Source: Hydrolagus affinis (lineage: Eukaryota). Taken from it: 64,000 nt of DNA. Each line of letters opens with the position of its first letter. The stretch's first letter is position 1. The stretch is from contig JAAILG010000140.1 of assembly GCA_012026655.1 (NCBI GenBank), positions 62,001-126,000 of the forward strand, written 5' to 3'. The notes under the pieces were generated by a model, which made no database searches, had not been told where the DNA came from, and saw only the letters and a program-made list of their open reading frames with translations. A program made the position numbers and the translations under genes. Positions 5,496 through 64,000 of the stretch are shown here, piece after piece.

Positions 5496-6825
5496 TATCT
5501 CAAATACAGTACAAGAATTATTATTATTCACCCCATGGCTGTTTGTGGGGCATTGACTGCTGTGTTTATCCTCAAAATATACAGTCAAAAATAAATAAGG
5601 TGATTGATTTGGCTCAGCAATATTGATAGCTTTAAGAGTGGGTACTTTGAGATTCGCCTTTTCTTTGTTCTTGTGTTCCATTAGTTGAAGAGGCAATTGT
5701 CTCTGTTGCTGGATGTGATAGCTTATTGTTTTCCATTTTTAATTTTAAATTTAAAAATTGCTTAAAATTGCAAATTGCGTAATTTGCTACAAATGAAAAT
5801 AAGCTGTCTGCAGAGTCTGATGGAATTCCAAGGAAATGGTGGAATTCCAAGGAAATGCAAAACATGGTGTACACTGAGGCATTTGCAAACAGTACTTTGT
5901 GACTCTTATCCAAGGTATCCCACTATCAGCACAGTAAGTGAAAGGACCTATTAAACCATTATCCTACCAAGGTGAAAGGCACTAGTAGGATTAGCACGAG
6001 TAATAGTAGGCACTATCAATGTAAATTTGTATTGTATTTATTAGAATCAATGATCCTATGTCTTTTCCCTTCCTTTTGGATGGTGCATGCACTCCCTGCA
6101 TGGCCCTGATTGAAAATTGGAGCTGAGTGTGAAAGGAATCACAGAGGCAGTGTTGTGGAGTTCCTTTAGATTAGAGGTACCCTCTGAGCAAGACATTAAA
6201 CTTACTTAAGACCAGGCTCTGCTTACCTGTAGATGGAGACAAACCCTTTTTTAAAAATGTAAGTACTGTAAAACAGAAAAGCTTGCGATCAATTAAGCAA
6301 CATCCCTTTTGGATGTGCAGTGATAAAAGAACAAAGGAAATATTTAATAGAGTTCCAATTTATTTTGCATGAACTCAGTAAGTTTGTGAGCAAATGTATT
6401 TTATTGGGTTGCATTGACGAGATAACTAAAGGTCCAAAAGTGTAAGCTTTAATATTGTAATTTTTAAAAATCCTAACTCAGGGTTGGGAGTTGACAGAGG
6501 GAAGTACAATTGCAATGTAAACATGCAGTAGGATGAAGGTTCATTAATTTCCTTTGCCCCACTGTGTGTATCATTTGAGATTTCATCTGTGTTGCTGAGG
6601 GAGTTGTCAATCAGAGGTTGGGAGCGGCTGAGGAGAGGTATCTCTGGGCTATGCCTTCCCCCTAGAACCCAGTTAGGTGCAACTGCTCACTGTGAACTGG
6701 AATCAGCAAATGGTGGGGACCTGCAGAGACTAAGTGGTACAAAGGAGACAATGCAAGATTGCAAAACATTTCAGAATAAAAATTGAAAATCATGACTATT
6801 TCATGATTTTGAAATAAAATATTAT

Positions 6826-6920
6826 TAATAGTAATCGTTGCATTTGTTTGTGCCTTACCACTTTGTTGAGACGTCTCAAAGCGCTACACAGCAGATACTA
6901 TAACATGGATTGACTGTGTA
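6826..6920 (-). mobile_element. SINE 3' fragment
   Basis: TTGCATTTG...GAGACGTCTCAAAGCGCT matches the family tail. Confidence 0.75.
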
Positions 6921-7430
6921 TTAGATTTTGAAGTTAAATTTATCACACTATTTCAAAGTATGACAATCTGTAAATTGCCTTAAAGATTCCATATAATTTT
7001 TGCTGAAACGATTTGCTTTGTGCTCCTGATACACAGTGAAGCTCTGATGATAATTTCTGACATGAGGCGCAATATATCTTTTAAGAGCCTTATAGAATGA
7101 AACATTGTACATTTTAGGCAAAGCAGGTGATGAATACTCAATTTCAATGCAACGTTTTCAAGTTAACATGTGACGCAAACATGCCAAATAGACTTACATA
7201 TACGTTTTTCTGTTTGAATAATATTTTGTTCTTTACAGTTAATAGGAAGTTTTGATGTAAAAGATTTCTCAAACACCCTCCACCCTTCGTAGGTCAGACA
7301 TCTACAGTTTCAGCTCATCTCAACCTCAGTAGCCTCTATCCTCCTCACACTTTTAGGTTCCCTTCCTCTGCAATGCAAATTCAAACTTACTCTAAGATTT
7401 ACACTATTATTAATAATAATATTAATAATC

Positions 7431-7787
7431 ATGGAGTCCTGTAGTTCAGTGGTTAGAGCACTCACCTTGCAAGTGAGAGACCTGGGTGCGATTCCCAGCA
7501 GGTCAGGACGAAACCTTCGGCAAGTTTCCTTACTCCTCACGCCTAATAATAATAATCCCTAAAAAAAAATTAAATTGGTAAACTCAATCCACTTCTGTGG
7601 GACACTGTGGTGCAATTGGCTGTCGCATTTTGCCCACAAAATTGACTATACAGTATATTCTGTGAAGCGCTTTGAGACATCTAGAAGACGTGAAAACAAC
7701 AACAAAATTATATTTATAAAGCTCCTTGAGGATGTCCTAAGGCACTGAAAACCGCTGTTTCAAATTCAAGGATTATTATTATTATTA
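7431..7787 (+). mobile_element. Near full-length tRNA-derived SINE with a small L2-tail insertion in its 3' end
   Basis: A box TAGTTCAGTGG, B box GGTGCGATTCC, Deu-like core GTGGGACACTG..GCAATTGGCTG, (ATT)n tail. Confidence 0.92.
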
Positions 7788-7811
7788 CACTGGAACTGAT
7801 TTTTCAGGAAC

Positions 7812-8270: not shown

Positions 8271-9119
8271 CTAAAATCTAACAGGAAATCATGTTGTTTT
8301 CCACTGGTGGAAAGTTGCTATTACTCCTAGGTAGAACAAATCCAGATTTAATAGCACAGATATCCTTGGGCAGTGATAGAGCAAGAGTAACGGCAACTTT
8401 TCCATATCACACTCACTGTGCCTCCACACCCAAAGCAACACTTACCCATCTCAGCCACTGTACAAACATGACAAGATGTGGTCTACCACTTCCATGTCCC
8501 TGGGCAGTGTCAGCAACATCTAACGTGTGACACAAACCAGACATGCAGCTTGCAGCCCAAGGCAAAGATTTCAAGTCCTGGCACGACGAGGGCATTCAAA
8601 AGCCCTTGCCGTTTATCGACAACACAATGATTGACTCTTTTTGACATTGGAAAAAACACAGAAAACACAGGGGCTTGAAAACTTTTAAGGTATTCGATTT
8701 AGCCACCAGGTCACATATTTCCACTCCTCTATTTTACTAGATTTGTGCCTCAAGTGTTTAAATGGGAAAATCCCACCAGTGGAATATTTCAACGATTAAA
8801 GCAAAGGCTTACTGTCAACAGTAGACAAAGCCCACGGTGATAAATGTTACTGTTAACCATCAGCAGTAAACCCATCTCTGTATCTCCACAGGAACGTATG
8901 GCATGAGGAATTTTTAAATGAGTTTGATGCACCATGTTTACACCATCAAAAGCACGTTGTTAAAAGTGCTTGCAGGCTGTCACCTTTATGATGGTTTCTA
9001 AAGCAAACACAATGTTGTGATAGCCATTGAGTTTAATAGCCTCACATCATCCAAATGGTTTGACTTGAAGTCTGATAAATTGAATTTACTGTATACGGTA
9101 CATTGGCAATCTAACTTAC

Positions 9120-9291
9120 AATAATAATAATCTTGCATTTGATACAGTGCTTTATCAAGTTTTCTAGACGTCTCAAAGTGCTTTACAGAATATACTGTAA
9201 AGTGAATTGTCTGTTTATTGTGGATGAAACGTGGCAACCAATTGCACACAACAGTATCCCAGTCATGGCTTGAAATGGCCAATTTATTATT
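9120..9291 (-). mobile_element. SINE 3' half
   Basis: Tail plus core (CCAATTGCACACAACAGTATCCC) of the abundant family. Confidence 0.85.
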
Positions 9292-10253
9292 TTGTGGTAT
9301 AAAATGGTTGTTGCACAACAAATAAAATCACAGATAAGTTTCAAATAGTTTGAATAATGTACTGCATATAACATAATCTGGTTTCTCAAAAACCTGTTAA
9401 ATCAACTGGGATTATGGCAATGGAAAAAGACAATGATCTTTTTACTGCACGTCAATCAGCACCTACCTATACCTGGATTTTTTAATTATCACATAGAACA
9501 GTACAGTAAGATTTCACTCGGATATACCTGACAATCATGTTGACATAAATGTTCCGACTTCTGTGGAATTGTGGACATATTAAGGAACCAGTTTGTAGCA
9601 AAGTGCTGACGAAACCAAAAAATCAAACAAGAAATCTGCACCTATTTCATTAAAGGCTTTCAACAGATAATTTGCACATGAATGTCCAGAGCAAACTGCG
9701 ATCTTGTAGTATCTTTGTTAATAAGCAGCAATCCAATAAAATAAGAACATAAGAATTTGCTCTGTGAGAGAAGACTAAAGTTCATCTCATTCACCATCCT
9801 GGCAGTCGTTTGACATTTTTTGTCCCTATGACTGTAAATACTGTACCTTAAAGTATAATGCATTTCTCTGCAGCATTGTAAGTATAAGACAATGTAAATC
9901 ACTGCAAGCCAATATAAAATTCTTGCTATCACTTCCCCATAGTATCAGCTGTTGGTCATCAATATTTAATATTTAGGCACTGCAAAAAATTAAAAGCATG
10001 AGCAATTAAAAATTTATCAACCACGGCATACATTGATTTACAGGAAATCTGTGAGCTGTTTTTTTGTTGTGGTAAAGTAGTGATGCACTTTATATGTACA
10101 GGTACATACAATTCATCAGCGCAACTGTTATTCTATCACATTATTTTGAAAAGGCAAAAGCTTTGCAGAGTTGAGTTGATAGAACAATTTCATTGGCAGA
10201 GTTTGATCATTGTGCAAGGTTGCAAACTTCTTTTTTAATGGCTCATTCTATAG

Positions 10254-10300
10254 ACAACAACAACAAGTTTGATTTATATAGTGCTCTCCACGCCGACATC
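10254..10300 (-). mobile_element. L2 family B extreme 3' tail
   Basis: (CAA)n TTTGATTTATATAGTGC...CCACGCCG matches the reverse complement of 29428-29481. Confidence 0.65.
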
Positions 10301-11815
10301 AGATGTGTAATTACAGTATTTTAAACAAACACTTTGGGGAACTCAGCAGGAAATTTACATCAAAATAAAATACATGTACTGTAGTACAATGTCACAATCA
10401 ATTAATTCTTCAAAATGTTGCAAAATGTATTTCACTTTTCCATTCATTTAGCTGCTTGGGCTTTGTAATATTTCACATTAGAAGTACAGTATATGGACCT
10501 TTTTTCGAATTGTTATAAATTATGGGAACAGATAAAAGCAAAGCTACATTGAATATTTAACAACCTTCTGACCCAGTGGCGAGAGAGCAACTAACTGAAT
10601 TCTTGAAATGCGTGAAACATAAAACATTAAAAAAATTCATTGAAAATGAAATACATTTAAAACAAATATGTTGAGACATATGCACAATGTTTATTTTTTC
10701 ACATGGAATAGAATATCTGTACTCAGCGTTTAACATTCAGGGCCAGCCCTATAACAAGATTCCTTGTATTTATATTCAGCAATATACAGCTGATTATATG
10801 TGGAACTATTTAATGTGGAACACTTCCACTAACTGATGGAAATGGCTAAACACTGTTACTTGTAGCTGCAGTTGTTATTTCGAGAGATTGAAGGTGTCAA
10901 TACCTTTCCCTCAAAATATTAGTGTGCTGCTGGATTAACTCAGAGAACAGTTGTAATGCCAATTTAATGGGCTGCTTTAGTTGTATCAAATCGTCAAATT
11001 ATGATGACAGAATTAGCAGTGTTAGACAGAATGAATAACATTTCCCGGACTGGCTTAATTGACACTCATAAAAAAATATTAATAGCGTTCCATTAAAGAG
11101 AAGAGATAATAAGATGACATTGTAGAATAATTCATCATGAAGGAGTATTAATGCTTACACTGGAATAAGTAGCTTTGAAAAGATTCACAATTAAAAATGA
11201 AACAAATAACGGTTGTGTTGAATATGTCAAATTAAAAAAATGTTTAGTCAATTTGTATACCCATTGAGTAATTTAAGTAATTTAAGTAATGCATTTATAA
11301 TGTATTTATAATGGCTTTTAAGGTTGGGTGTTTTTTAAATGCTCGCACTGTTTACCTATTGCAATAGATAATACACATCTTAATATTTTATACCAGATTG
11401 CTTTATGTCTATCATCTGTATCATGATGATTAATTTTTTTTACAAAAGCATGTTCATATTTATTGTTTAATCCACACATTTATTTTATTTCCAAATCATT
11501 CCTAACATTGCTTCACGTGTGTACAAACATGCTAGATCTTTCATAGTCACCATGAAATTAATTTATTGAATCTTCCCTAACTATCTGCCTAAATATGTTT
11601 ACACTTTAGGACAAGAATCTTGTACCAAATACTCTTCCAAATGTGTCTTCAAGCAGTTACTGGTCATGCATCATAGTCTGTTTCCACCTTACCTTAATAC
11701 TGAACAGAAGAAAAATGTGTTGTATAGGATGCTTCCTGATGCATCTTACTTAAGTAAGTACAGTAGTATATTTATATTTATGATGTTATAGTTTTATGTT
11801 ACCAAAGTAGTTCTC

Positions 11816-12120
11816 ATGGAGTCCTGTAGCTCAGTGGTTAGAGCACTTGCCTCACAAGTGAGAGACCTGGGTTCGATTCCAGGCAGGGTGAAATCTTGGA
11901 CTGGTTTCCTTACGCCTGATAATAATCCCTCCAGAAAAAAAAACAATAATAAATTGGTCATTTCAATCCACGACTGTTTGTGGGACACTGCTGTGAGGAA
12001 TTGGCTGCTATGTTTCACACATATACAGTAAATTCACTTTACAGTATATTATGTGAAGCATTTTGAGGTGTCTAGAAGATGTGTAAAAGCGTTATATGAA
12101 AGGCAAGGATTATTATTATT
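11816..12120 (+). mobile_element. Full-length tRNA-derived SINE (~305 bp)
   Basis: GGAGTCCTGTAGCTCAGTGGTTAGAGC head, perfect B box GGTTCGATTCC, Deu-like core, L2-like stem-loop tail with (ATT)n. Confidence 0.95.
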
Positions 12121-12231
12121 GACTAACTGGCAAGTTGAGACTGGCACAAAGTCATTCCTATTAAGCACATTTGTTGTTGTTGTGAGATCTTGGTTTAACA
12201 ATCATTCGAAGGATGGCATGCTTATCTTGGC

Positions 12232-12335
12232 ATAGCTCCCCCAGCACTGCACTGGAGTGTCAGCCCAGATTATGAACATAGAGTCCTAAAATTTAACAAT
12301 CTTCTGACCCAGCGGTGAGAGTTCAACCAACTGAA
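12232..12335 (-). mobile_element. Older DeuSINE (SacSINE1/AmnSINE1-like) 5' part
   Basis: CAGCACTGCACTGGAGTGTCAGCCCAGATTATG...CTTCTGACCCAG resembles the reverse complement of the DeuSINE head/Deu junction. Confidence 0.65.
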
Positions 12336-14221
12336 TTCATGAAATGCATGAAACATAAAACATGTTTTAATTTTGTAGAAGATTAGGTACATCTATATGA
12401 AAAAAAACTATGTTGAGACATATGCACAATGTTTATTTTTTCTCTACATGGAATCATTGCAACCGTACTATATTGAATTCAATTATTTCAACAATACAGT
12501 AGTACTTTTTGAAATAACTGTTGACAGATTAAAATGTATTTGGGATTCTAATGTATTAGAAAATTATTTTGCTTGATAAAAGCCACCAAAAACATTTTTT
12601 GTTCTTAAACTATGATTCAGTGATCGAAAGAAGAGAAAGAATTAGCACAGCTATCATGTAGGCACTGGTACTGATGTGTGCGAGAGATTCCTTCAGGTGA
12701 GTTTAACCACAGTAAACATTATCAGCTCATTTACAAGAAATACTTAGTTCACATATGTAATTTAGCAAGTGATTTATTTATAATGGGTCCATCCAGACTA
12801 ATTTGTGCCTCTTCCACTAGCTAAAGTGCAAACGTGGGACTTTTGTGACTGCACTGGTCAAACCACAGCTCACTCAAGTGCCGGCCAATCTCTCTCAATG
12901 TGGCTGCTGTCTTTCTCTTACAGTACCTATCAATGACCTTTCAGTTTGAGTGATGTTAATTCCTGAGACTAAATGAACCAACATGGATCAGTTGGAGGTT
13001 CTTCTAGATGAGGTCTTCTGTGATGTTACAAAGCAGTTGTATCAGTTGTATCAGTTTAGGCCAGGTTGGCTGTGTAACCAGTACTGATCCACATATGGTT
13101 CTTGTTCCTGTATGTTGGTATGGATTTTTCTGGTCAACAGAAGTCCTCTATTTGTGACTTGGTGGCAGTACTATTAAGTAGAAAGTAGAAAATATTGAGG
13201 AATTCTTGAGTACCTCATCTGATTAAAGTGGCTTTGTATTTTTAGGACATGATTCTTCAATCATCTTATTTTCTGGTTGGTAGATTTACTTACCTGGTGG
13301 CATAAGCTTATAATGCAATTACTGTTTTGTTCTTAAAATGAAAGGCTTGCTTGTTTCATTTAAGTAACCACATTAGGTTTTGTTGAACAAGCTGCACACG
13401 TATGCATTTAATCCAAAACCCTTTGAAAACCTGTTTGGCACAGAGCCAGGAGGTTACCTGGTGAAGCTCACCTTCAGTGAGAAAGCTGCAAAGCCCTCAT
13501 TTACAGTGTGTCTGTGACCTCCTGGATGCAGTTAGACAAGAAGATCTGTGAAGCCTTCTCATCTCACACTTCTATGTATAGCTATGGGATGACTCCCTGA
13601 AGCCTGAAAGGAATCAATGGCAGAGACATTGAAATCTGCTATGTCCCTCACAGCTGAAAGAAACGTAGGCCCAATCAAACAAAGGGAATTGAGATTGGTG
13701 CACAAATGTTGGCATATTGTCATTCGGTGAGTCCATCGCTGCTGAAGAGAAAACAATGCAGACACTGTTGTTTTGTCCATAGTAAATATTTTGTTCATAT
13801 TTCTCTGCCTTTCTTCTTGTTCTGTTTCTTTAAGGGGTCTGCTACTTAAAACTAATGCTGCACTCACATGAAACCCTGCTGCTACTCATTAATATGGCTA
13901 AAGGAGTCTGTGTATGCAAGTGATATTTAATCCTGCTTTGATTTATAGTGCACATGGATTACGATACTATTTGGTGCAGAAAGTCACAGTTTGGCATATT
14001 TTAGTCAGTTCCACCCAATTAATAATTGGGTCAATTGGGGTTTTAATCATTGTGGGTGAATGTGCCTTCACTGTGTTTTGTCAACTGTGGAAAACACAGT
14101 AATAATGCCAAAAATACAGTTAGCACCAAAATAGGTATTCAGCAATACATGATAACATGGTAAGAGCATCACAGCAGACAGATAGCCTAACCCCATCTCA
14201 GAAGGTTTTCACTATGAAGTG

Positions 14222-14700
14222 ATTCACACCAGATTTCGCCCGCAAACTCACCCGCACCAAACTTCGCTCCCCCATTACCCCAGTTCTTGCCAGACTTCAC
14301 TAGCTCCCGGTCCCTGAGAGGATCAACTTCAAGATCCTTACCCTTGTTTTCACTCCTCTGCACCCCCCTACTTCACTGATCTCTCTCCCCAAACCAGCAC
14401 CCGCTGCCTTTGCTCCACCGGGTCTGACCTTCTCCATGTCCCCCGAATCCTCAGCTCCACCCTCGGCGGCCGTGCCTTCAGCCACTACACCCCGAGGCTC
14501 TGGAACTCACTTCCTCACTCCCTTTGCCTCGCCCCCTCTCTTCCCAGTTTCAGATTACAGCTAAAGACCTTTCTCTTCAACCGCGCCTTTGGTCACCTTT
14601 CTACCCTTGGCTCGGTCCTGCGATCCGCTACTGTGAAGCGCTGTGAGATGTCGTCTGGCATGGAAGGAGCTATATAAATCGAAGTTGTTGTTATTGGTGT
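14222..14700 (+). mobile_element. 5'-truncated L2 LINE (family B)
   Basis: Encodes ITPVLARLH*LPVPERINFKILTL; tail GAAGCGCTGTGAGATGTCGTCTGGCATGGAAGGAGCTATATAAATCGAAG(TTG)n differs from family A. Confidence 0.9.
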
Positions 14701-17019
14701 TGTTTATGTCTTGTCGAAAAATCTAGGATATTATGCTTTTCACACAATTTACATAAGAGGGTTGTGACCATCATCAGGATAGTTAAGTAAGGATTCATTA
14801 AATCTAACTGCATACACAATCCTAAATCATTTACATCACAGATTTATGTACAGAGAGTGATCTGAAATGTGTTTAATGGCTTTGAACACACTTTTTCCTG
14901 CATCTTGGGTTCATGTGCTGCATTATACACTACACAAATTATATATATTTTCTTGAGAAGCATCTTTGTTCCATCTATTTTTAAATACGATTCACTTCCT
15001 TGTATGAACATTGCACTCCCAACATTGTCTTAAATAAATAAGCAGCATATTGAAATCACTAGCTAAGGATTCATCCATTAGTATAAACCAATTTGTTCCA
15101 TAGTTCAGCATCTTCATTTTATTAGCAACCTGTGCTCTATAAACCTATGATCACCTTCAAAATGTAAATTACCTTTAATAATGCTTATTAATAATTCTTT
15201 CTTATCTCAAACCAAATTAACTCCATGCTATGGATACATTGGATATTTCAAATATTAAATATTTCAACCACTTAACTATTCTGTTTTGTGTGAATTGCAT
15301 AACTTTTCTAACCTGCAGACATCCTCTCACACTTCCATTTATGAGCGAAAAATCCACTCTGCACATGAGGCAGATTTAAAAATGGCTCAAAATTCCATGT
15401 CTTTTGGACATGGAAAAAACTCTTCACCTGAAGAGTTGAAGAGTGAAGAGTTGCTAACAGTTGCTAATAATTAAACTATTTAGAAGCATTTTGTGTGCAG
15501 AAAACAACCATGAAGTGAATGATCAATTTATCTGTTGAATTGTTTGCCAGTATAACTGGAGTAGTTTGACAAGGGGAAGTATTCTATTAGACCTGAGGGT
15601 CTAGAGTAATTATACCTCGAAAGGTCTTATTTACTTTAAAACCCAGCAGGATCAGTAAAGATGAATGTTCATTTTTTGAGGATTTTAACTGTGTTTTAAC
15701 ATGTAGGTTTAGATTTGTGGAGTGAGGAAATGGCAAACCTCCCAACATGATTTGACTGTCAGTATAGCAGCTGCTCACCTGCCAAATTTGGAGATGGATT
15801 TCACAGTTATTATTGAACTATCTTCCAGAAGTCACATACTAAATACAGGACTATAGTTTTACTTTGAAAGACGTGAATCTAATTTTTACTTTCTATTGAA
15901 AAGACAATGGAATTAGTGCCTGAAACACACTGTTTTGGGACATAACTTTTTCTTACTCTAACCTTTATCCTTCACACAACTCATTGGAGATCAATCTACT
16001 CTGGCACACTACCTTTGTTAATTGACGCATGACTTCTCTCAACAGATTATCTTTAAAAATACCTTTAACAAGACTTCCTAAGGTTTACAGTCAAGTCTCA
16101 GGATTAAACAATGTCGGTAAATTGATCCCATCTGGAGTTGAAAGGGAATCTGAAAGGGTTGAGATGGTGACGCTTGATAATTCTTAGTTATCAGATGACC
16201 TCTTAATGGTCCTTGATTCTGTGACTTCTAAATGTTCACTTTTAGCTTCTTGGATTAATATAAAGCACCGGGGATGTATAGATACTCAATAAAGACATTT
16301 TAACAAGGTGCACAGTTGAGTTGCGATATATCAGTCATACTTCTCGAGGAAGCACAAAGTTGTCCGCAAACATCAGAAAGAACAGATATATTCAATGTTA
16401 CAATTTGTTAAGATTAAACACTTGAAAATTATTTTATATGGAATTATATAATAAAGACATAAGGTAAAGTAACATTTTACTTCCATTTTCTTTTGCCAGA
16501 CTACTACAACTGCAAGTAACTTGTTAACAAATGTTGCACATATAGCTGAAACAAGGCATGAAAGTATCAATGATCCCACTTTGATTCTGTTCTTGTCAAA
16601 CTTGTCAATGACTGAGACCTTCTTCTACACATGCTGTCTATAGGGAAAATATGACACCTGTCAGACACATTACAGATTACTGCTTGACCAAAGTGTGTCA
16701 ATCTTTACCCAATGGAAACAAATATATTATTCAATACTGCAATCGGATGTAATGTTATTAGATATTCAAATGCGCTACTCCATTGTCTTGTCATGTTTTC
16801 TGCAAATGAAGATCTTTATGTGACAGTCTGTTTTAGGAAGCAGTGAATAGGGTTAGAACACTGGCTGTATTCAGTCTTGGGCTATGAAATTAATGAAGCC
16901 TGAAGCTGATAATGCCATGTCTCACTACACTGGCAGTGACACCCCCACAAGTTCACAGAAAACACTGGACCAATATATAGACAGCATGAATTGCAAGGAA
17001 ATACAAATCCATCACAAGA

Positions 17020-17400
17020 TCATGTAAGATAAGAAGAAAGGTTCGGATGAAGAAGGCCCATTTGGTGGGCTTATTGTTGCAGAATACCAACCCTATCATC
17101 CATTAATTTTAGCATCAAGCACCTTTTTAAATGAGTCGAGCATCCTGTCCTCAACTACCTGTCTTCAGGAGGATGTTAAAGATCTCATGACATCTATGAT
17201 TTTCAAAGAGAAGGGAGTTTCTCCTAGTGTCTCGGGCAGCAATCCATCAGATAAATTGGACATTCGCTGCCTGGCTGTTTGTGGGACCTTGTTGCCCTGG
17301 CCTCAATCATTCTTCTGTTAATTGTCCTCAGGTAAAGAAATATTTCCTGGTGTCTGTCCTGAAATTGCCCTTTGGAACCTTAAAACCTTCCCTCTTCTGC
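17020..17400 (-). mobile_element. Old CR1 LINE 3' remnant
   Basis: AAGAAGGCCCATTTGG...CCTCAACTACCT...GTAAAGAAATATTTCCTGGTGTCTGTCCTGAAATTGCCC resembles the reverse complement of a CR1 ORF2 end/3' UTR. Confidence 0.55.
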
Positions 17401-20927: not shown

Positions 20928-20952
20928 ACACACACACACACACACACACACA
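20928..20952. repeat. (CA)n microsatellite
   Basis: About 12 CA units seen directly. Confidence 0.95.
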
Positions 20953-42232: not shown

Positions 42233-42244
42233 TTGTTCTTATTC

Positions 42245-52093: not shown

Positions 52094-53329
52094 TTTTTTT
52101 TAATTTGTGTTTTTTCTGTTTATCGATTTTATAAGCTACCAACTTCTCTGATTTTGTGACTCTAAATCAATCGTTAACCAGCTAAAACCGGCATCGTGCT
52201 GTGAGATATTTTGCTAAGATGATACAGTTTTTGGATAAAAATAGGATTCCATGTTATAAATAATCCAAATGTAGATGATTAAGTACTCTATGGAACACTA
52301 CACTTCCCGTTCTGTAGGATACTGAGATATTGGCTGTAGAATGCAGCTTCAGGGATGAATGTTATGTATTTGAATAGATTACCGGACTTGAGGAAAAGTG
52401 GGAGTGGGAAAAATTGGTAAATATTTCACAGCAGTTTTTTTTTTCTATTTTTGTTTGTGCTTTGTTGCTTCCTTCGAAAACTTCACTAACCCACCTGGAG
52501 TGCACGCACAGATGAATCGCAACATGGACAAGTGAAATCAATTGACATGATGTGCAAAATGGCTTTTCTGCTTGTTTCCATAGTTAATTTACATTACGAT
52601 GCCATGCATCTTCAGTTTCTGTGTTAATCAGCACCCAGTGACCCATTTTCTCTCTTGTACATAAGTAGAAATTCAAGCCTTTCAAACCAGATAGATTTAT
52701 TTTAGAATCGATTCCTACCATAAGCTGCAAATTCCTGCCCTGTTCAAGTACAGTGTGTAGAATATGAGTGTAATTGTTCTTGGCAGTTCAGCTAGTGTTT
52801 TACTTTTTGCTATGGTGAAAGTTCTTGTGTTTATATTGAAATTCAGGGAAAGTCCTGGCAGTGATCTTGTGTGCTTGATGACCTCCCCAATCTTAACATT
52901 CTTAGCACATGATGTGTAACAAGTATGTCTCCTGTTTTTGGAAACCTTTTTTTTTCAATACATGTCTGGTAAGAATAATTAAAATACACGGATGGATTCT
53001 GTGAAGGAACAAAACAGCCTCAACAGAAGTGTCCCTGGATAGTTTTCTAGTTGCTCACATTGTGAACCTTCACAGTCACTCATTATTGGTAAATGTTTCA
53101 CCGACAGACACATTTACATGTTCACAATGGGTCAGAATAATCAACAACATTTCAAAATGTTTACAACATTTGTGAAAAAAAACTTTGTAAAGTAGTATAA
53201 ACTTGGGTTGGTGCTTTTTTTTTTGCAGTGAAGTGCGGTTCAGCGATAAATGTTTAATAAATGTTTCCACAAGTTGAAGCATGCTTTGAGTGGATGGGGT
53301 GAAGGAAAGTTGGGATCTGCATATGACAT

Positions 53330-53561
53330 AAAACCATGGGCAAGTTTCCTTACTCCACAGACCTAATAATAATCCCTTGAAATTAATTGGTCATTTCAAT
53401 CCATTTGTGGGATACCTCTGTGTGCAATTGGCTGCCGCGTTTCGCTCACAAATATATAGTCAATTCACTTTAGAATATATTTTGTGAAGCACTATGAGAC
53501 ATTTAGATTTTAGAAGATGTGAAAAGCAATATTATCAACTGCGAGGATTACTATTATTATT
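53330..53561 (+). mobile_element. 5'-truncated SINE
   Basis: GGGCAAGTTTCCTTACTCCAC...CTAATAATAATCCC...core...GGATTACTATTATT. Confidence 0.9.
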
Positions 53562-53654
53562 AATTTAACTCCCAACACATTGCTTTCATCCTGGTTTGGT
53601 TGGTTGTGCGTTTGGTTTCAATTTTTTAAAAGTAGCTGGCTATGATTGTTGAAC

Positions 53655-53708
53655 TTGGAGAAATCTTGACGACATGATAAGGTGCTATATCAAATGCAAG
53701 GATTATTA
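53655..53708 (+). mobile_element. SINE tail fragment
   Basis: GACATGATAAGGTGCTATATCAAATGCAAGGATTATT. Confidence 0.75.
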
Positions 53709-55827
53709 GTGATATAGTTCGCACATAACGTAAATTCTAATTGAATCACTGTGCACTAAACAATGGAAATAAACTTTTTCCATGGAGCATCTATATAAAG
53801 TGATTCAGGAAACACTGCAAACATAGATAGTATTGAATTAAAAGGAGTACAGAAGACGAGCGCATATTTATGTGTTTAAATGGCATACGGCACTCTTGAT
53901 TGCTGTGCTTTTGGTGTACAGTACTATAATACAAAGATCTTATTTGTCATGGAGAAATCTACCATCAAATACAATTATTTCAAATTAAATGCTACAGATC
54001 ACATGAAATGAAATCAAAGCACAGGAAGTGATTGTTTAGCCTGTACTGGCAAAAACCTACTTCCTGCAATAAACATGCCTGTGGCTACCATTTGGCTCTA
54101 AAATCTGCTGTAGTGTGCATATTGTCGCGCAAAGAAACAGCTGCATTCATAGCACACCCACTAACTATCACTATTAAAATTGAACCAAAAACCATAGTCA
54201 TTAGATTCAGAACATTTGGAATGCAGATCTGAATGCCCCACTTTTAACATATATTTTAGCAGCATAAAACATTTGCGTTCTTCACAATTAACATATACGG
54301 AATATGCATCTGAATAAATACACTCGAAGAATAAAAAGTGCAGTCAGTGGCAATATGTACATAGTGTTCAATAGGCTTCTAGATGTTCAAAGTGGACTTG
54401 CAGTCAAAGTATGATACAATTTGCATTTATATTGTGTCTTTCATGTAGGGTGGGCATCTTTCACTCGATTGCTTCACAGTGCACACAATGTGACCTGCCC
54501 TCATATGTTCATTATTTGTTACCAGCATTAATGGGCCTTAGGGAAGTATAAAGGAAACTTACGAGGCACAAGGAGACAGGCTAAAGACGCTCTCCTTAGT
54601 CTATATAATTAATTGACCCACATCTTTAATGTTTGTAATCATTTATTTATTCATCTGGCCACCGAATTTGTGGTATAATTGTCGAAATTCATTATACAGA
54701 AGAAGAAATAGCAGTTTAGGATTAGCCGCAAAGAATCTGCAAAGCAGATTAAATTAGTGGACCTGTTCTGTTACATTAGATGTATCAGAATTAAGAAATG
54801 GATAAGATATGGTCTGCAAGCAGAGTTCAAATGGTTTGGAGTGTAATGTAGGTACTGTATAAGCTACTGTCAGTCAATATCACCGAAGTATGCATGTCTT
54901 GTGCTGCTGGCAGCTTTGGCCCAGCCGGTTATACAGTATTGTTACTTACATATTTAGAACTTTTGTTTGACAGATGACAAAGACTGAAACACCATCTTCT
55001 AATTTCAGACTAAATCCATAAAACAGCCATTAAAGTCATGTAAATCAAGTGAACAATATCGTATCATGGGACAATAGAGTGAAAGTTTGTTATATTACAG
55101 ATGCATTTTCATTGCTTAGGTTTTTATAGGTAGTGATTGAAGTGTAATCCTTTTACAATGGCCCACTAGATGTTTGCCATCTGTTGTGTTCTTAGCCTGT
55201 ACGTTAGTACGTTATATGTTATTGCTTTGTCTGGACATACCAAGTCATGTGGAGGAGGCAAACTCTGGAAGAGCAAGAGTAGATCCTCCCACTGCACACT
55301 ACATTTTTACAGATCTTGTTTAGAATTGCTCTACTTAAGAGCGTTGATAACATTAGCTTGTAAAAGCTAGTATTCATGACTTGTTGGTATGCAGGATTCA
55401 GGGGCTGTGGTCAGTGGTATGGTGTCTCTCTTTTTCTACCACCCTGTGCGACATCAGCTCATCACTATCTTTGCTCTTCATTTTACTATTCTACCTGACA
55501 AGCAATTTGAATACTTACTCATTGAGTGGACTTTCAAAATGACAGAGGGGAAATGAGAGGTGATTTCCCCATCGTGTGGATATTATGTTTTTAGAAGTGA
55601 CTTCAGTGTCAGGAATGCAGCATTTTCTAAAAGCATCGGCTTTAGTTGCCACTTGAGGAAGAAGAAGTCACTCAAAAAGCAAATCTGTACTCAGGGCAAA
55701 TCACTTGATGTCATGAGATAGAGATGCTTCTGGACAACCAAGATAATATGCAGCAAATAACATCTACCAAACATCCTACACAGCTAGTCTATCTCAGATG
55801 TCAGCCTTTTCTTGCCTTTCATGTTCA

Positions 55828-56022
55828 TTTGGAAGCAACTCTTGCTTCTGAGTTGGAAGGTTGGAAGCACCACTTGAACACTCCAATGCAATGTTGGGGG
55901 AGTGCTGCAGTCAGAGGTGCCATCCTTAGGATGAAACATTACACTACCGCATCTTAGAGCACTTAAAATCCTGAGGCAGTTTGAGATGTTTTGAGGTCGT
56001 GATAAGACAACAAATGAAAGGA
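55828..56022 (+). mobile_element. Internally deleted older DeuSINE (SacSINE1/AmnSINE1-like)
   Basis: Head CAACTCTTGCTTCTGAGTTGGAAGGTT, Deu start GGGAGTGCTGCAGTCAGAGGTGCCATCCTTAGGATGAAACATTA, tail TTTGAGATGTTTTGAGGTCGTGATAAG. Confidence 0.7.
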
Positions 56023-57412
56023 TCAGTTGTTTTTTGTATTGTCAAGAGATCAAGGCACTGAAATTGCTGCTTAAGGTCACTGAAGGAAGGAGTCATTACA
56101 CCTCAGACCTACAGATGCAATAGTCTTCGTGAAAGCCAAGAATTTTTTTTAAGGAAGTGAGGAAAGACTCTCCGAATATCTCCACTTGTGTCTGCCTCAG
56201 TTTGTGTTAGTGAAAACACCAAACTTTGTGTAATCTGAACTGAACACGTAACCTTAGCCACCTTCATCCCTACTTGTGATACAAAGATATTTAATGAAAA
56301 GGACAGTCCTTATAGCATGCGATTTTACTATATCATGTCTGATTATGATCTAGTAGAGTCTAATAAAGTCAGTTATAAGTTCCTCAATGGACTTTGGGAA
56401 AGCTTCAGTGGGGACTAGGGAACATGTTTACCATAATGAAAGGCTTGTAATGATAGTCTTTGACTATGTTCTTTTTAATAGTAGCTTGGTTTCATTATAT
56501 TTTATATGCAAGTAGAGTCGCAGTATTGGATAATGCTTATTTATGCTTCCTTTAATAAAGTCTTCCCATTGTCGCACTGGGCTACTTTGTCAGTGTTTAT
56601 TCATGTTAAAATAACACAGCTTTTAAATACCCTGAAGTCATGAGAATTCATATATGCACTTCTTGGGATGTGTCATGTTAATCTCTACGTGCATTATACA
56701 GAAATAAAATTCTGAATAGCAGCTTTACCTTAGCTTGTTGAAGAAAATAAACACAGAGTAAACTTCAAAAAATTCAGTAAACTCTTGAATTGTAAAGACA
56801 ACTCAAATGTAGAAAACAACTAGAAGTTGTGCCTTTTTTTCTCTTTACAAAAATGAAGAAAAGGGATCATTTTTATATTTGGATACCAAGCAAAATCCCC
56901 CCTTTGCAAGTAATCATGTATTCTGGAAACAGTGAGAGTCCAGATTTATTACATTTACAGTCGAGGGAAGCATGACCAGTGTAAAGTTATCTTATTAGCA
57001 GTATAGAACTTGAGATGCAGAAATTCTGGAAAATATGTGGGTGGTGGTAATTCTAATGAATGCTCCAATTTCTTATGGTTAGTGGTATTAATGGCTAAAT
57101 ACCAAGTCAAGCAATTTATTTTTTTAAAAAGTGCTAAATGCAGGACTTCATCTGAAACCTGCAGTCGTAATACTTCATCAGTTTGACTGGTGATTGACGC
57201 AAGTTTGGCTTTTGAGGCCATTCTGCATAGTTGCAACAACCAGGTGTGTATTTGAACATGACAAAGAATGCATCTCACAAAACCATCTGAAACTATAATG
57301 GGGGCACTGTGTTACATCAGCTTTCTCACAAAATATTTACAAATAGAAGCGGTAAAGAGCCTTCATAAAGAGAGAGTTAAAACTTAAAAAGCCTATTGTC
57401 ACTGAATAAAAT

Positions 57413-57420
57413 TGACGTCA
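57413..57420. promoter_or_regulatory. Full palindromic CRE (TGACGTCA)
   Basis: Exact motif, with three further CpGs within 25 bp downstream. Confidence 0.35.
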
Positions 57421-58867
57421 CATAAGCGAACGTGTTAACCGAAGCAGTTCAAATACTGTGTTGATGTAGAAAGGAGCAATAGCTGAACAGGCATCACAAA
57501 ATGTGCACAAACATATTTTGCAGTCCAATAATGAATGACAGTGTTATGGTTTGTTTGTCAGAATGGAATGGATGGATCAGGTCCCTCAGCTCCCTTATAG
57601 CTTAACCAGCCTTGACTTGCATTGTGGTGACACGCATCTGCTGACTCGAAGTATCGGCGTGTTAAGCTTCAGGCTGACTGGTGGGCCATGCTTAAAAGAC
57701 TTTTGGCATGTGCTGGTGCCTGCATTTTTCACCCTTGACTGAAAGCATATGCTCTACACAATTGAGACAGTGTTAGTGTGTAGGTCCTCCACAGTTTCCT
57801 ACACATCTGGCATAGCTTGGCCCTGCTTCCAGGTGAATCATTTCTCCTGGGAGGGTGACTTGCAGCTCTGTGGCATCTGCAGGGAATGGCGTGAGTGGCA
57901 GGAAGTGTCTGAGTCCCTCTGAGGGCGAATTTTGTCTACACATGCTTTTCCAATTTCATCAGACATTCGTAATACATTCTAAGTGACATGGTTTAATCAA
58001 GCATAAATGAACTAGAGGCCGATTGATAAAAATTGCCTCTGACCCTTAAAGTTTCATGTCATGGGCACAAAAAGGTAATTAGGATTTCAGATCAAAATTT
58101 GCTTCAGTAGCTTAATACTGTGGTATGTGGTATATATTAAGTGGGCATTTTGGGTCGACCAAATCATTAAGAAATCAGATAACTTTTTTTTCTGATTCTG
58201 GATAGGAGGTCAATATTAATAATACAGATTTAATACAGATACAGTTTTAAGTAACTTTCATTGTTTGACTGGGTGACTCGGGCAATGATTCGGTACAGGA
58301 ACATTTTTCCAGGATGAAAAATTAATCTTTTCATACAATATCAGTCCGTTTGAGACAGTTTTAATCCAGATGTTAGCTTGTGTGCAGTAATGTGAAATTA
58401 AGTTGAAGAAGATTTGAAGCCAAAATGTCATTCTGAGCTCAATTCTGATGGACCTGTCTCCTTTGTCTTACGGGGAGAGGAAAGGAGAAAAACAAGCGAT
58501 ACAGCTGAAGTTAGCAGTAATAAACTGGATTACAAGGTGTGCATGAATGGTTCTTCTATGGACGGATTTAAAATTGATTTTGGTTACAGCTGTGAATACT
58601 TCTGCACTTGTTGGCAGCACTACTGACAACTGTAGTCTGTTTTATTATTTATTACTAATACCGGTATTTGGAGTGTCTTTAATGTGGTTCATTGTCCATC
58701 CAGAGTCTATGGAATTTACATGACTGCAGATCTAAGACCTTAGTAGTTCACTTATCTGGGTACAAGAGTGAAACAGCAGTGTGCTGATGTTTTGTCAGTT
58801 CATTGCTATCACCTATTCTCTGGAGTTATATGGCAGAGATGACTGTGCAATAGATTAAAATATTATC

Positions 58868-59040
58868 TGTTTTCATCTCTGTGATTAAGGATCAAATCCA
58901 GCCAAGATTGATGATATGAAAGTCTATCTGACTGTTGGAAGTCCTAAGTGAACTTAAATTTTTAATTCCTAGTGGACATAATTTTATAGTAGAAAACACT
59001 GCCAATGATTAGTAAATTGGTTTACAATTGACCTCCAGCT
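58868..59040 (+). mobile_element. LF-SINE-like ancient SINE relic
   Basis: TTTCATCTCTG...GATCAAATCCAGCCAAG and TTCCTAGTGGACA recall the LF-SINE segments TTTCACCTCT...GTTCAAATCCAGCCCAGG and GTTCCTAGTGGACA (from memory). Confidence 0.55.
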
Positions 59041-59744
59041 CACTCACAGAAGCTATAACTCTCCAGCTCTCGTGGGAAATGGAAATGTCATCCTGAAAAG
59101 GGGCGCTGTTCTCTGTCGAACAAAGAGGTGTTTCCTGTGCCTAGGATCATAAATTGTCACTGGAATACATTCACTGATCTATTGTTAAATTTGCTGGTCT
59201 CAATCTAGCAAACCATTGTTCAATTTGAGCTGTACACACTGCAGTCATCTCTTCGTGTATGTGTGTACATTTGTTAAAAGTAACCACTAACCTCTTTAAC
59301 GACGGAAGGGAACAAACATACCATGCTGGGGGCTGATCCAAACAAGCAAATCACCCCTTTGTCTTCGATCTCACAGATCACTGATGGTTTGTAGAAAAAT
59401 ATTTTGCTGCATATCATGGACTTTCAATTTCTTATGTTGTAAAGTTACTCTGTTATTGGAATTTGCCTTGGTTGATTGTTATTCCTTATAAATATGACCC
59501 TGAAGAACTGCATCCAGGCTAAAAATGGACCTCTTCCAAGGTCCACACATACTGAAATGAATCAAAAATTTGTAACATTTCGCCTGTATCTTGTGTCCCA
59601 TATCTCATTGAGGTTCTGCAGAGGCAGAATGCTAAAACTATCATCACATCTCACTGGTTAGAGCATTGTTTAAGTAGATCAGTGGACCACACATGTATCC
59701 AGGCAAGACCCAGAGCAACACATCCATAGCAAAATGAAACGCCG

Positions 59745-60172
59745 AAATTTGCAAATATACAGTTAATTCGCTCCACAGTATATTCTGTAAAGCGCTTTGA
59801 GATGTCTCAAAGATATGATAAGGCACATCCCATAGCTCAGTGGTTAGACCACACACCTTACAAGCGAGAGAACTGGGTTTAATTCCAGACCGGGCGAAAC
59901 CTTGGGCAAGTTTCCTTACTCCACACGCCTAATAATCATCCCTCCCAAAAAAACAATAATAAATTGGTCATTTCAATTCACGACTGTTTGTGGGACACTG
60001 TTGTGTGCAATTGACTGCTGCGTTTTGCCCACATACATAGTCAATTATCTGTACTGTATATTCTGTGAAGCACTTTGAGACATCTAGATGTTATGAAAAG
60101 CGTTATTATATCAAATGCAAGTCAAAAGGATCATTATATTTTTTATTATATCAAATGCTAGTATTATTATTA
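59745..60172 (+). mobile_element. SINE nested in a SINE: full copy (59827-60146) inside the tail of a truncated copy
   Basis: Outer tail breaks at GATAAGGCAC (59826) and resumes as TATATCAAATGCTAGTATTATT (60147). Confidence 0.88.
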
Positions 60173-61179
60173 ACAAGCCTGAAACAGATACTCCAAGATT
60201 GTTGTTCTTAACACTGTTCATCATAATTGTTGTCAACATCAGATGGGTTGGCTGACTGTGACAAGTAGGTAATTTTGCCACACCCCTTTCTTGAGTGGAA
60301 TAGTCTCAATTAAACCCCCTCAACTCTTACTGGGATCTGTCAACTGAGTACCAGGCCAGATGAGGCCCAGGATTTGGGTGTGTACAACTAGCAGCTTGCA
60401 ATTTTTTTTACGAACCCTGTACAAGGCATGAAATCAAAATGAAACTCTTATCATGCCTGAGGAGTCCATGATGTTGTAAGCCTGATAGTTAGCATCTACG
60501 AAAGCTTGTCGTTTTTAGTATAGGGTAATATACTAAATATAGTATATAAATATAAACATTTATATTTATAACTAAATATAGCTGTTGAAATAAAAGTAGT
60601 AATTAATATTGCGATGAATAATAATTTGGGGATTTAAAAAAATATATACCCAGAGTGTTTTCTTTTACTAGTACATTTCCAGTGTGAAGTGTTTTACTCT
60701 GCAAGCGGTCCTCCGTAATCAGCAAACCAAAGGTTCAGTTAATCCCACAAACTTTTCATTTATCGTCTCCAATTCCAGAGGAGCGGTGTCCTGATGCTGC
60801 ACAGCACTCGATTTAACAACCAGACACACAATTCCTCCCACTGGAACCACAATGGGATTGCCAGGCAAATGCTAGGATTTGAACTCCGAATATTTGTGAC
60901 TGCTAAAAGTATTGAGCAACATAAGCATAAAATTGCCATTGAAATGTTTTAATTATTTCCAGTTAGAAGTATTTTTTTTCCAAAAGATCAGACAAATAGG
61001 TTTTCCTCATGTGTGGGATGACCACAGAGAGCAAGCATTGCCACTGAAATACATTAACTGCTTCCATCATTGTTTTAGTGAGTGATTTTGAACAGCTGTA
61101 GGTCATGCAGGGGAGGATGATTTCATTTAAACATTTCAGATTTGTTGTATTTCCTAGGAATGTCAAAAGAATACATCTT

Positions 61180-61296
61180 GTGTATTTCACCCACAAAATA
61201 TGCAGTCAATTCACTTTACAGTATATTCTGTGATGCGCTATGAGATATCTTGAAGACGTGATAAGTCGCTATATGAAAATCAAGAATTATTATTAT
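61180..61296 (+). mobile_element. SINE 3' fragment
   Basis: CCCACAAAATATGCAGTCAATTCACTTTACAGTATATTCTG...GAATTATTATT. Confidence 0.85.
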
Positions 61297-63429
61297 CATC
61301 CTTATATATGTTGGAAATGCAATTCTGCGAAAAACAATATCTGTTTTAAGGCATTATGCAGAGAATCATTTACCATTTTCCGTCTTGAAACATGAATTTG
61401 GTATTCGGATTAATGTAACCCAATTATGGGCTACTTATGAAATGCTTTATTGAGCTGATGAATTGTTTATCTTTGTTCAAAGAGTTGCCATTAGAAAGCT
61501 GCCTTTTGAGTTCTGTTTTTGTTTGATAATGTGCAGAATGTGAATGGGCATACAAATTGGTAAATTAGGATAAATGCAGAGAATAGTGTGGTTAATAACG
61601 ATCCATGATGCAATCATTCTGTAACTGATGCTGCCTGAGCACTGGTGGTAACTGCAGAAGGCGATGTAGCTTTCTTTTAAACCTGAACATAACATCTCCT
61701 AAGAATCGAGATAAATGCAATTATGTACATTTCAAAATCAAAATGAAGTTGCATATTACGCCTGGAAAGTCGATGATGTGGTGAGATGGTTTAGTGCTGT
61801 AATCTTTGACTGGTCTTTACTTTGGGAATGGAGTAATACCGGTATGTTCACTGCAATGAAACCAAATAGTATTAATAATTCATTTTAATACTAAACATAG
61901 TCATCTTTATCCCATGGAATGTCTGTCTGGAAAAACATAGGTAAACCACTAACCAAGAAAAGTTTCTGTGTTAACCTTTGCTCATTGCTGAGAGTAGTTA
62001 TCTTTTGTTGTGTTTGGATGAATGTACTTGTGTTAAGTAGAATTACATATTTCATTGATTGAAAATCAGCTTGTCTTAAAAGAAACTTAAGACGTTACAT
62101 GTCAACAAGTTTCTTCATTCTACTGTAAAAGAAAACTTCTCTGCTTCCGCAATTAGAGGCTCTTAGATGAAGACCAGTTGAAAATTCTGAATAGTACCTG
62201 TACATTAAATACTATGCAGACTTTCATCCCCTTGAGCACTGGAATCCATTTCCCCACCTTCTAGCCCACATTATTTTCTAACGCTCAATATTAACAGGGG
62301 AAATGTACCATTTTTTAAAAAAAAACTTGGCAAGGTTGTGTCAGTAAACTACTTAAACTTCACACTGGTGAGAAATGTGTCCAACCTCAGGAGCAGTAAC
62401 TTTAGTGGAATGTGCTAGGAATGGGGGTTCCTATAAATGTAGCAATACTTGGTATTAATTAGCACATGTGTTAAGTACCATGCAAAAAAATATTGTGCAG
62501 TACTCAGATTTCAAATTAATTGATTCCTAAATTTGTTAAAATATAACCCATAAACATTCTACGCTTATAAATTCACGATTGGGAAAGGCATTCCCTTCAG
62601 TAGTAGCAAATAGAGAGCTTAGCACTGCAGTATTCCTGAAGTCCCTTCTTTTCGCCCCCTTCATTAGGAAGCTGTTGATGGGAGCTGTCATTTGGCAGCT
62701 GAAAAGCCCATAGCTCACAGACAATCCACCTGGTTTGGCAGAAGGCTGAGCCGGGCTCCCAGCACACAGAGCTTGCTCCAGCTCTTTGATGTAAGAACGG
62801 AGGCCTGACAAACCTTGTGACAGGTTTGTCCAGGGGGCTTACAGAGCAACATCAGAGAACATGAAAGTGGGTTGCCATAATTAATCATCAATCACACAAA
62901 ATAAACTTCATCCACCGCTCACATCAGCTTATGAGTATGTAATAATTTTGGATTATTAGTGCAAAATTATTGCTGTCATGTGTTAAGGGCTTACAAGTGA
63001 TGTATTCGGTATTTTACTAGACTCTTTAAGTGTTTGTTTCAAGTAACTGCTTTGTATCTAATGCATAACCCAAATCCTATCTTTTTCCCTTGGTGCTTAG
63101 AAAAAGGGGCGTACGATAAATAATAATTGTGGGGAAATAAAAGTAGTCTGTCATTCATTTTAAGAATAGGCTATGCTATTTTGTGACGCAATTGTATCAA
63201 GTGCATTGGGTTGCTCTTTTCATTTGCTTACCATATTTGTTCCTTGCCCTTATTGCTCTGACTTGCTCATTTACACCAATTCCTTTGTTATTATTTATAT
63301 ACAGTTTGTTTCCTCTTCCTTACTACATCATCCAAGTCACTGCCCTTGAAGTTTAAGCAGTGTATTGAAGCAACATTGTTCAATGAGAAATTTTGTTCAT
63401 TTCCCTTTTAATATTTTGTATCGATGCAT

Positions 63430-63493
63430 ATTACAGTAAATCTTGTGAAGCACTTTGAGGTGCTGATAAAGAACTATATCAAGTGCAAGGATT
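63430..63493 (+). mobile_element. SINE tail fragment
   Basis: TGTGAAGCACTTTGAGG...ACTATATCAAGTGCAAGGATT. Confidence 0.7.
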
Positions 63494-64000
63494 TTGTCAA
63501 TATTTCACTCATCATGCAATTGCAATTGTGCTCTGTTCATCATGTAATTACAGTATACAACCTTGGATAAATACACTTGAGGTACTTTACACCACTCCTA
63601 CCTTGACTGTTTGACTGTTTAGATCAGAAAAGGCAGGCAGTGCATTAACTGAGTCTGCAGTAATGTAATACGCTCAGAATTCGTAACAGCAAAAAAAATG
63701 TTTAAAACCCAGTGACCTAGATAAGCAAGCAGAGTTCTGTGACCAAAGGAAAAGTGCTGTCTTGAGAAAATGCAGAATATTCAAGAGTTTTATGCTCAAA
63801 CTAATTGATTTTTATCATTCTTTCTCCACCCTTTAAAATGTAACTCTTTCAAAATGGATAGTTCCACTTACCGTACAGCGAACCTTTAACTTTAAAGAAA
63901 TGTAACATTTTGTCACCAGATGTGAAAGTACCAGATGTATTTGGTCTCCAATACACGGGAGACCAAGATTTTAGTTTGTTTTAAATTCATTTTCTTCCCC

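Follow-up and report, generated by a model that had tools for sequence, protein, structure and literature searches.

Among the described systems, the footprint of the Tc1-family transposon Sleeping Beauty is a close point of comparison for the sequence word studied here: the transposase cuts within the ends of the element, and once the donor site is closed by end-joining, the three terminal bases stay behind between two TA copies, giving TACAGTA or TACTGTA (together TACWGTA; PMC6943129, drawn on here in excerpts, as are the other papers cited). Tigger elements have a catalytic spacing of DD29-36D, and JRK one of DD32D/E, together with a TA duplication and short inverted ends (PMC9219625, PMC7386202). 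Passer, an active fish pogo element, has a measured target consensus of AAGTACTT; in HeLa cells, its footprints measure 0-4 bp (PMC9976928). In rice, the ratio of insertions to excisions was expected to lie between 1:1 and 2:1, and 2.6-2.8:1 was found for mariner (PMC4423477). Here, we have analysed a 64,000-nucleotide stretch of Hydrolagus affinis contig JAAILG010000140.1 (hereafter the window; positions are counted from its first letter), which carries an excess of TACWGTA and a miniature inverted-repeat transposable element (MITE).

We consider it very probable that the excess words are scars of past excisions by a DNA transposon of the pogo superfamily, a Tigger that has since decayed, and by its MITEs, because the word inserts as five bases at TA, its flanks match the landing sites of the MITE and the element ends read CAG...CTG. 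We observed directly that the word is in excess, that it is inserted in repeat copies and that it has a signature on both flanks, and the anatomy of the element was likewise observed. By analogy with Sleeping Beauty, the transposase would cut three bases inside each element end, and the empty donor site, closed by end-joining, would keep both TA copies plus CAG or CTG. The 7-bp word is identical to the Sleeping Beauty footprint in both orientations; unlike that laboratory excision of a Tc1-family element (in the excerpts of PMC6943129), the scars proposed here would be natural and genome-wide, with a pogo/Tigger source and a different target profile. The footprint chemistry itself is textbook and already known. 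Among the papers listed by full-text searches (which reach neither subscription journals nor supplements), we have found no genome-wide survey of TACWGTA in a natural vertebrate genome, and the four papers containing both words and "transposon" were Sleeping Beauty experiments. The present case contributes the vertebrate-type genome, the matched source family and target profile, and the scar-to-survivor ratio.

TACWGTA is in excess in the window and across the genome

The window has 38% GC, is CpG-poor and is rich in tRNA-derived short interspersed elements (SINEs) and fragments resembling long interspersed elements. It holds 53 exact TACWGTA words: 12 derive from SINEs, two are the ends of the MITE and 39 are neither. 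This last figure is close to the "about 38" non-SINE sites of the initial annotation, whose 24 coordinates were all exact starts of TACAGTA or TACTGTA. In the unmasked window, the expectation is 13.3 words from base composition (Markov order 0), as in the earlier estimate of 13-14, and 12.5, 14.0, 19.3 and 36.1 at orders 2-5. The heptamer pair ranked first or second at orders 1-4 and only 26th of 16,074 words at order 5, since a model of order 5 already contains the hexamers of the word itself and thereby takes up much of the signal. Repeat masking with a 1.5-Mb local library left 32 words in 52,268 bases, for expectations of 11.4, 11.8, 13.6 and 21.2 at orders 2-5 (Poisson p of 9e-7 at order 3 and 2e-5 at order 4). 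The excess thus persisted in the comparison that the initial annotation had proposed, against third- to fifth-order models in masked DNA. It amounts to ~18-21 words in 52 kb, or one per 2.5-2.9 kb, in keeping with the one scar per 2-3 kb first suggested.

As a comparison sample, we have used 120 other 10-kb stretches of the same assembly (~0.1% of the genome), which contained 742 heptamers in 1,199,005 bases. After masking, 395 were found in 842,791 bases, with 137, 152, 175 and 276 expected at orders 2-5. Among the TANNNTA words, which had been put forward as controls, TACWGTA was the highest at 2.87x, the runner-up reaching 1.48x, and it was the sole non-simple-repeat word among the top nine heptamers. 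Its one-mismatch neighbours stood at 0.83-1.38x, so that the excess is specific to the exact word. Per TA, the window did not differ from the other stretches (odds ratio 1.21, p 0.32). The window-wide excess initially described is therefore real, but it is not peculiar to the window, since it occurs genome-wide at a like density.

The word might alternatively be a functional motif under selection, for instance a site bound by a protein. Beyond the enrichment itself, nothing was found in favour of this explanation, to which we attach next to no probability. The word shows no strand bias (183 CAG and 212 CTG on the plus strand of the masked sample, i.e., about equal numbers) and its spread is nearly even, with mild overdispersion (dispersion 154 on 119 degrees of freedom; six of the 120 stretches without a heptamer). 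Furthermore, it appears as insertions in decayed SINE copies and its flanks reproduce the target profile of a transposon, as described below. An over-represented 7-mer in motif scans may be transposon debris and not a binding site.

The word appears as five-base insertions at TA in repeat copies

For want of a suitable outgroup, the ancestral state was taken from repeat copies. Insertions were called by tiling the sample against the majority of at least four homologues, with 173,922 repeat bases assayed. The exact word was present at nine of the 30 five-base insertions. Eight of these created it where the homologues have a plain TA, and the ninth was a CCG variant adjoining the native word of the SINE; four more of the 30 showed the word at one mismatch. 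It was found at none of the 29 three-base and 25 four-base insertions (0/54 together) and at one of the 16 insertions of six or seven bases. With a background of 1.3%, this corresponded to a Fisher p of 1.3e-4 and a binomial p of 4e-9. A site-centred pass over all 786 words classified 168 as native repeat words, 86 as element ends, 12 as five-base insertions (in two of which a native word adjoins the insertion), 16 as substitutions, 24 as unclear, 50 as near repeats and 430 as unique. These two analyses superseded a first pass over all TANNNTA words (12/219 vs 8/476), which was discarded: SINE-native sites filled its denominator, and in three of its 12 cases the queried site had not gained a new word. 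The possibility that the native word of the SINE is itself an old scar found no support, with 196 of 209 matched copies being full length, only one five bases shorter, and no wordless subfamily.

The best single-site case in the window is the TACAGTA at 5505..5511, where five bases were inserted at a TA within the decayed tail of a SINE, although its support is thin, exactly five bases being absent from two of the four bridging homologues. The same SINE position carries the opposite CTG form in loci L057, L168 and, in a decayed state, L095. The presence of both CAG and CTG forms at one TA implies at least two independent events. Recurrent scars appear at SINE majority position 142 (L057, L095, L168 and window 5505), at a TA that SINE copies have only where TG has changed to TA. 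This position is possibly a hotspot, or in part a SINE sub-lineage that copied a scar. Another candidate scar, TACAGTA at 5043..5049, borders the tail of a truncated SINE and occupies the same TA that holds MITEs in L053 and L220. In a post hoc comparison, MITEs and scars shared SINE TAs (L053/L220 with L157/L137, L063 with L133, and L222 with L049). The SINE copies carrying scars are 5-19% diverged from their majority, which gives no support to the past burst of activity proposed in the initial annotation.

Many heptamers were also seen in or at the end of the (ATT)n tail of the SINE (L035:4483, L038:1823, L101:2767, L104:6033, L130:2931, L153:7278, L167:2247 and L168:3827). These are probably scars in a TA-rich target, though unscorable by alignment.

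The insertions bear on a second alternative, in which mutation bias would generate the word without transposons, through CpG decay of TACCGTA/TACGGTA and slippage of CAGTA units. The genome is indeed CpG-poor (observed/expected 0.17-0.72), and masked DNA contains 14 doubled words where three are expected, eight of them in the same orientation. Nevertheless, Markov orders 2-4 absorb the CAG/CTG excess, the neighbours AACAGTA, TACAGAA and TACAGTC stand at 0.9-1.0x, and heptamer density across the 120 stretches is unrelated to CpG level or GC (rho -0.02 and -0.04). Tandem duplication accounts for only one of the eight exact insertions, the other six doubles are of mixed orientation, and the flank signature presented below is unchanged without stacked words. 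Being contradicted by de novo insertions into plain TA sites, mutation bias appears extremely unlikely as the origin of the excess. As a sign of insertion into scars, the doubled-word surplus is no more than suggestive. Five of the 14 doubles in the masked sample are the palindrome TACAGTACTGTA, which could represent scars stacked on one another or, alternatively, the collapse of an element onto the TA within its ends.

Both flanks carry the target preference of the MITE

The landing sites of the MITE family (143 half-sites) show a purine at -1 (0.78), A at -2 and at -3 (0.55 each) and A at -7 (0.53). Masked heptamers (n = 416) were shifted alike on both sides at -1, -2, -3 and -7, with background TA unshifted, and the left flank of TACWG without a following TA lacked the shift (p of 1e-17, 3e-6 and 2e-8 at -1 to -3). 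A mixture fit gave a target-like fraction of 0.48 (confidence interval 0.42-0.56) for the masked heptamers and of 0.67 (0.40-0.90) for the 32 masked window sites, compared with 0.00-0.11 for the 31 other TANNNTA words. Two independent MITE sets yielded 0.44 and 0.50, held-out calibration 0.98-1.0 and random TA 0.02. Three transition neighbours of the word had a target-like fraction of 0.10-0.11 and three others of 0.00-0.04; the small fraction in the former is as would be expected of decaying scars. Words corresponding to shorter footprints scored 0.00 (TAGTA), 0.08 (TACATA) and 0.06 (TATA), and TATATA gave a value of 0.29 that is confounded by microsatellites. A preference of the MITE for landing in scars was considered and dropped (1/143 half-sites vs 1.0 expected).

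Fitted separately, the two flanks gave fractions of 0.48 and 0.50, and this equality excludes lone element ends. It also largely refutes the view that the words are remnants of decayed repeats, i.e., the native SINE word plus lone Tigger MITE ends (TA+CAGTA) whose bodies have become unrecognisable: a lone end predicts a one-sided signature. Repeat remnants do cover about a third of all heptamers, with 168 of the 786 sites being native repeat words and 86 lying at element ends; the MITE end itself spells the word, and low-copy repeats escaped masking with the local library. They do not cover the masked excess, which survives masking, and the single-copy five-base insertions in repeat copies are no remnants. 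As an account of that excess, this explanation is very unlikely.

Together, the insertions in repeats and the two-sided target preference support the footprint reading that the initial annotation had offered.

The MITE and its probable source, a likely Tigger family

The window MITE lies at 27408..27625 (+), with a 214-bp body (27410-27623), a TA duplication and inverted ends starting with CAGTA. As first annotated, its ends read TA-CAG...CTG-TA, so that the window heptamers at 27408 and 27619 are its two ends. It has thousands of relatives in the genome (6,998 candidates, 40 of them scored). One locus, L232, is a TA-flanked element of 2371 bp whose two ends match MITE positions 1-105 and 143-214; judged by this match, the MITE is an internal-deletion derivative of a 2371-bp pogo/Tigger element. 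The autonomous element also reads TA-CAG...CTG-TA, and the filler of the scar is thus made of the terminal bases of an element present in this genome.

CENP-B_N, HTH_Tnp_Tc5 and DDE_1 domains were detected on open frames of two broken copies (L234 and L235), with a DD32D catalytic spacing (the second D is separated from the third by 32 residues, and L234 has a decayed first D). The source element has a TA duplication and short terminal inverted repeats. Its closest proteins are a coelacanth "jerky protein homolog" (68%), an unnamed tortoise protein (63%) and a whale shark protein (59%), and the nearest transposases come from coelacanth, turtles, crocodilians and sharks. In its TA duplication, short inverted ends, 2.37-kb length, domains and DD32D spacing, the element resembles Tigger as portrayed in the excerpts of PMC9219625 and PMC7386202. 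Its nearest proteins being named jerky homologs, it also resembles the Jerky/JRK clade, names alone guiding the placement in Tigger vs pogoR. The most probable source is a Jerky-like DD32D Tigger of the pogo superfamily.

All ten copies fetched (L231-L240) are broken and pairwise ~75-89% identical. The Tigger/MITE family has 16 loci in 1.2 Mb (Poisson range 9-24), or ~15,000 genome-wide by extrapolation. No other TA-CAG-ended family in the sample is as large, with 25 ends vs 2-3 in each other element-like cluster. MITE copies differ from their majority by 7.5% outside CpG (37 copies, a set skewed towards good ones) and by 6-12% in five unbiased copies. Three of the small clusters, of 2-3 ends each, start with CAGGTA, and one pair starts with CAGTA-CAGGTA; these may be other Tigger-like families. 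Short elements starting with TA-CAGGTA were noticed at L091:685(-), L173:1799-1804, L049, L113, L132 and L046, the one in L173 having TACAG just before it, which recalls the window MITE beside a scar. The DDE_1 profile gave 150 positive matches out of 150 scored, probably including domesticated genes. Several of these loci (L181-L192) have long open frames, the longest of about 700 aa; they may include domesticated genes of Tigger origin as well as further Tigger families with CAG ends.

The initial annotation had attributed the scars to Tc1/mariner, and they could in principle be real and yet stem mainly from Sleeping Beauty-like (DD34E) elements now mostly lost. The canonical footprint of Sleeping Beauty has the same sequence as the word (PMC6943129), and a 1.6-kb Tc1-like family with CAG ends and ~220-bp inverted repeats does exist in the genome (L193-L195). 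However, only three DDE_3 matches were obtained from eight candidates, with five exact end matches in three contigs, in contrast to the 150 of 150 DDE_1 matches and the ~15,000 extrapolated Tigger loci. The heptamer flanks are G-rich at -1 (0.31 vs 0.19) with no gain of T at -2 (0.33 vs 0.34), like those of the Tigger MITE and Passer. The target preference of Sleeping Beauty is reportedly an alternating ATATATAT, unlike the heptamer flanks. An abundant DDE_3-type family with matching ends and target profile was not encountered (three copies were found; mariner-type Transposase_1 was left unsearched). We thus regard a Tc1/mariner source as unlikely, and Tigger/pogo as the more likely one. As a separate observation, copies of the Tc1-like family (L193:1149-2764, L194 and L195) are 95% identical, and hence younger than Tigger, with open frames of up to 317 aa.

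Passer lends a measured precedent for the Tigger profile, its AAGTACTT consensus resembling the -3 A, -2 A and -1 purine of the MITE landing sites and the heptamers (excerpts of PMC9976928). Unlike the 0-4 bp described there for this DD35D element, one 3-bp form dominates here, a 2-bp form being at most weak (TACATA, 0.08).

Most covered sites are shared with close relatives

We have compared the window with public runs of two relatives, organisms A and B, ~1.2-1.6% diverged from it. X6, X7 and X11 were near-identical to the window, with patchy cover. The first search was flooded by repeats; the indels listed were 12 of 55 there and 12 of 21 in the second. The alignment of orthologous loci recommended in the initial annotation could be made in part: nine of the ten covered sites were undeleted in organism A contigs (9502, 9839, 10312, 10485, 11759, 12495, 12919, 25536 and 26179), the gap totals being fully accounted for by the indels listed, a comparison that has little power at this divergence. 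At the tenth site, 10377, organism A is without seven letters, in four pieces, among the indels listed, and organism B keeps the site; 19 inserted letters of the organism A contig lie outside that list. The sharing of nine of ten sites suggests that the activity mostly preceded the split from these relatives. An organism A contig also runs into the left end of the window MITE, which indicates that the MITE predates the split too.

Scars would outnumber surviving elements

Several observations weigh against the excision-scar reading or loosen its figures. The 120 stretches were hand-picked from contigs >10 kb, so that all genome-wide figures are rough. Directly shown insertions are few, about a dozen. 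In a looser realignment of 816 SINE hits, some of them from duplicated loci, the exact word was at four of 43 five-base insertions (six more had it at one mismatch) and also at three of 62 four-base insertions. No clean five-base deletion at a heptamer was seen among the indels listed for organisms A and B, the difference at 10377 consisting of seven letters in pieces. Leaving out position -1 lowered the flank fraction to 0.40, and a fit restricted to positions 5-8 lowered it to 0.29, both less than the 0.56-0.65 given by the Markov excess. We have found no measured Tigger footprint in the literature; the word "footprint" is absent from the Tigger papers PMC9219625 and PMC7386202, and Passer, the closest pogo element to have been tested, leaves 0-4 bp (excerpts of PMC9976928). 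Finally, the rate in assayed repeats is eight per 8,707 TAs (0.9 per 1000), 4-5 times below the 3.3-4.3 per 1000 TAs estimated for unique DNA. MITEs are similarly scarce inside older repeats (4/65, vs about 10% of TAs held by repeats), as are scars (~8-12 of some 200-250). The low rate of both would fit repeats of overlapping age and imperfect detection.

On the excision-scar reading, about 30-65% of the repeat-masked heptamers would be scars. An excess of 158-258 per 1.2 Mb translates into 147,000-239,000 exact scars genome-wide, or 10-16 per surviving locus, and the most cautious flank fraction of 0.29 into ~106,000 scars, or seven per locus, by simple arithmetic. We thus estimate that the genome would hold 100,000-240,000 scars, about 7-16 per surviving element, most of them older than the split from the relatives. 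As in the rice survey, excision marks serve to measure DNA-transposon activity; unlike the species polymorphisms considered in the excerpts of PMC4423477, lifetime scars at ~10:1 over survivors are a different quantity. Such a surplus would be expected where each lineage hops repeatedly, where excision is often not followed by reinsertion, or where purging affects insertions of 200-700 bp more than those of 5 bp, three causes that are inseparable in these data.

Survivors record only where a DNA transposon stopped, and scars record where it has been. Whether a vertebrate genome is here a readable ledger of >100,000 germline excisions by one Tigger family, ~10 per surviving copy, stands in our judgement at even chances. 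If it is, repeat annotation undercounts the cut-and-paste events of the family by an order of magnitude, and the scar is the commonest single class of 5-base insertion in the lineage. Should roughly half of the masked heptamers be scars, excisions per surviving copy could be counted directly in this genome, which would also reveal the footprint and target profile that a Tigger transposase has in nature and supply >100,000 near homoplasy-free 5-base markers.

Individual heptamers and other features of the window

The initial annotation had read the non-SINE sites of the window as scars. This would hold for approximately half to two-thirds of the 39 and not for the rest, with most being individually uncallable. 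The highest flank score in the window, 2.73, belongs to a TACAGTA inside a (TA)n tract at 43179..43185. The double word TACTGTACTGTA at 42976..42987 is a candidate for stacked scars or a slippage duplicate. The TACTGTA at 27403..27409 shares its last TA with the left duplication of the MITE and is a candidate scar where the MITE later landed, an arrangement that one of the 143 MITE half-sites shows and that is not in excess of the 1.0 expected. Target-like flanks were also found at 10377..10383 (TACTGTA, score 1.92) and at a series of sites in unique DNA. Among the latter, the TACAGTA words are those at 11759..11765 (2.44), 26179..26185 (2.29, undeleted in organism A as described above), 30524..30530 (2.27), 39913..39919 (1.89), 22221..22227 (1.84), 10485..10491 (1.56) and 37033..37039 (1.33), and the TACTGTA words those at 44721..44727 (2.26), 51309..51315 (1.48), 54853..54859 (1.28) and 6264..6270 (1.17).

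The remaining non-SINE heptamers (9087..63555) are a mix of scars and chance words. Twelve have flank scores from -1.4 to +0.8 (12495, 24946, 25536, 28465, 32221, 35564, 44900, 48727, 53917, 54932, 62121 and 63549), five score below -1.9 and are probably chance words (9502, 12919, 20408, 22479 and 46142), and four lie in or beside masked DNA, without a flank score (9087, 9839, 10312 and 33172).

The SINE-derived heptamers are not scars. Seven occupy the native position (5455, 7649, 9193, 12040, 18289, 34813 and 61217), two the native position in truncated SINE copies (48148 and 63432), and three are point variants of SINE words (12024, 40658 and 60052). Three tRNAs predicted by ARAGORN in the window correspond to SINE heads. 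A Pfam scan of six of the 50 window open frames (at least 85 aa) gave no match in any of the six. A short stretch of open frame at 49445-49801 (-) resembles a real exon, with no Pfam match, and the region at 43-44 kb (43000-44140) has a higher GC content and is packed with simple repeats, resembling a promoter or an untranslated region.

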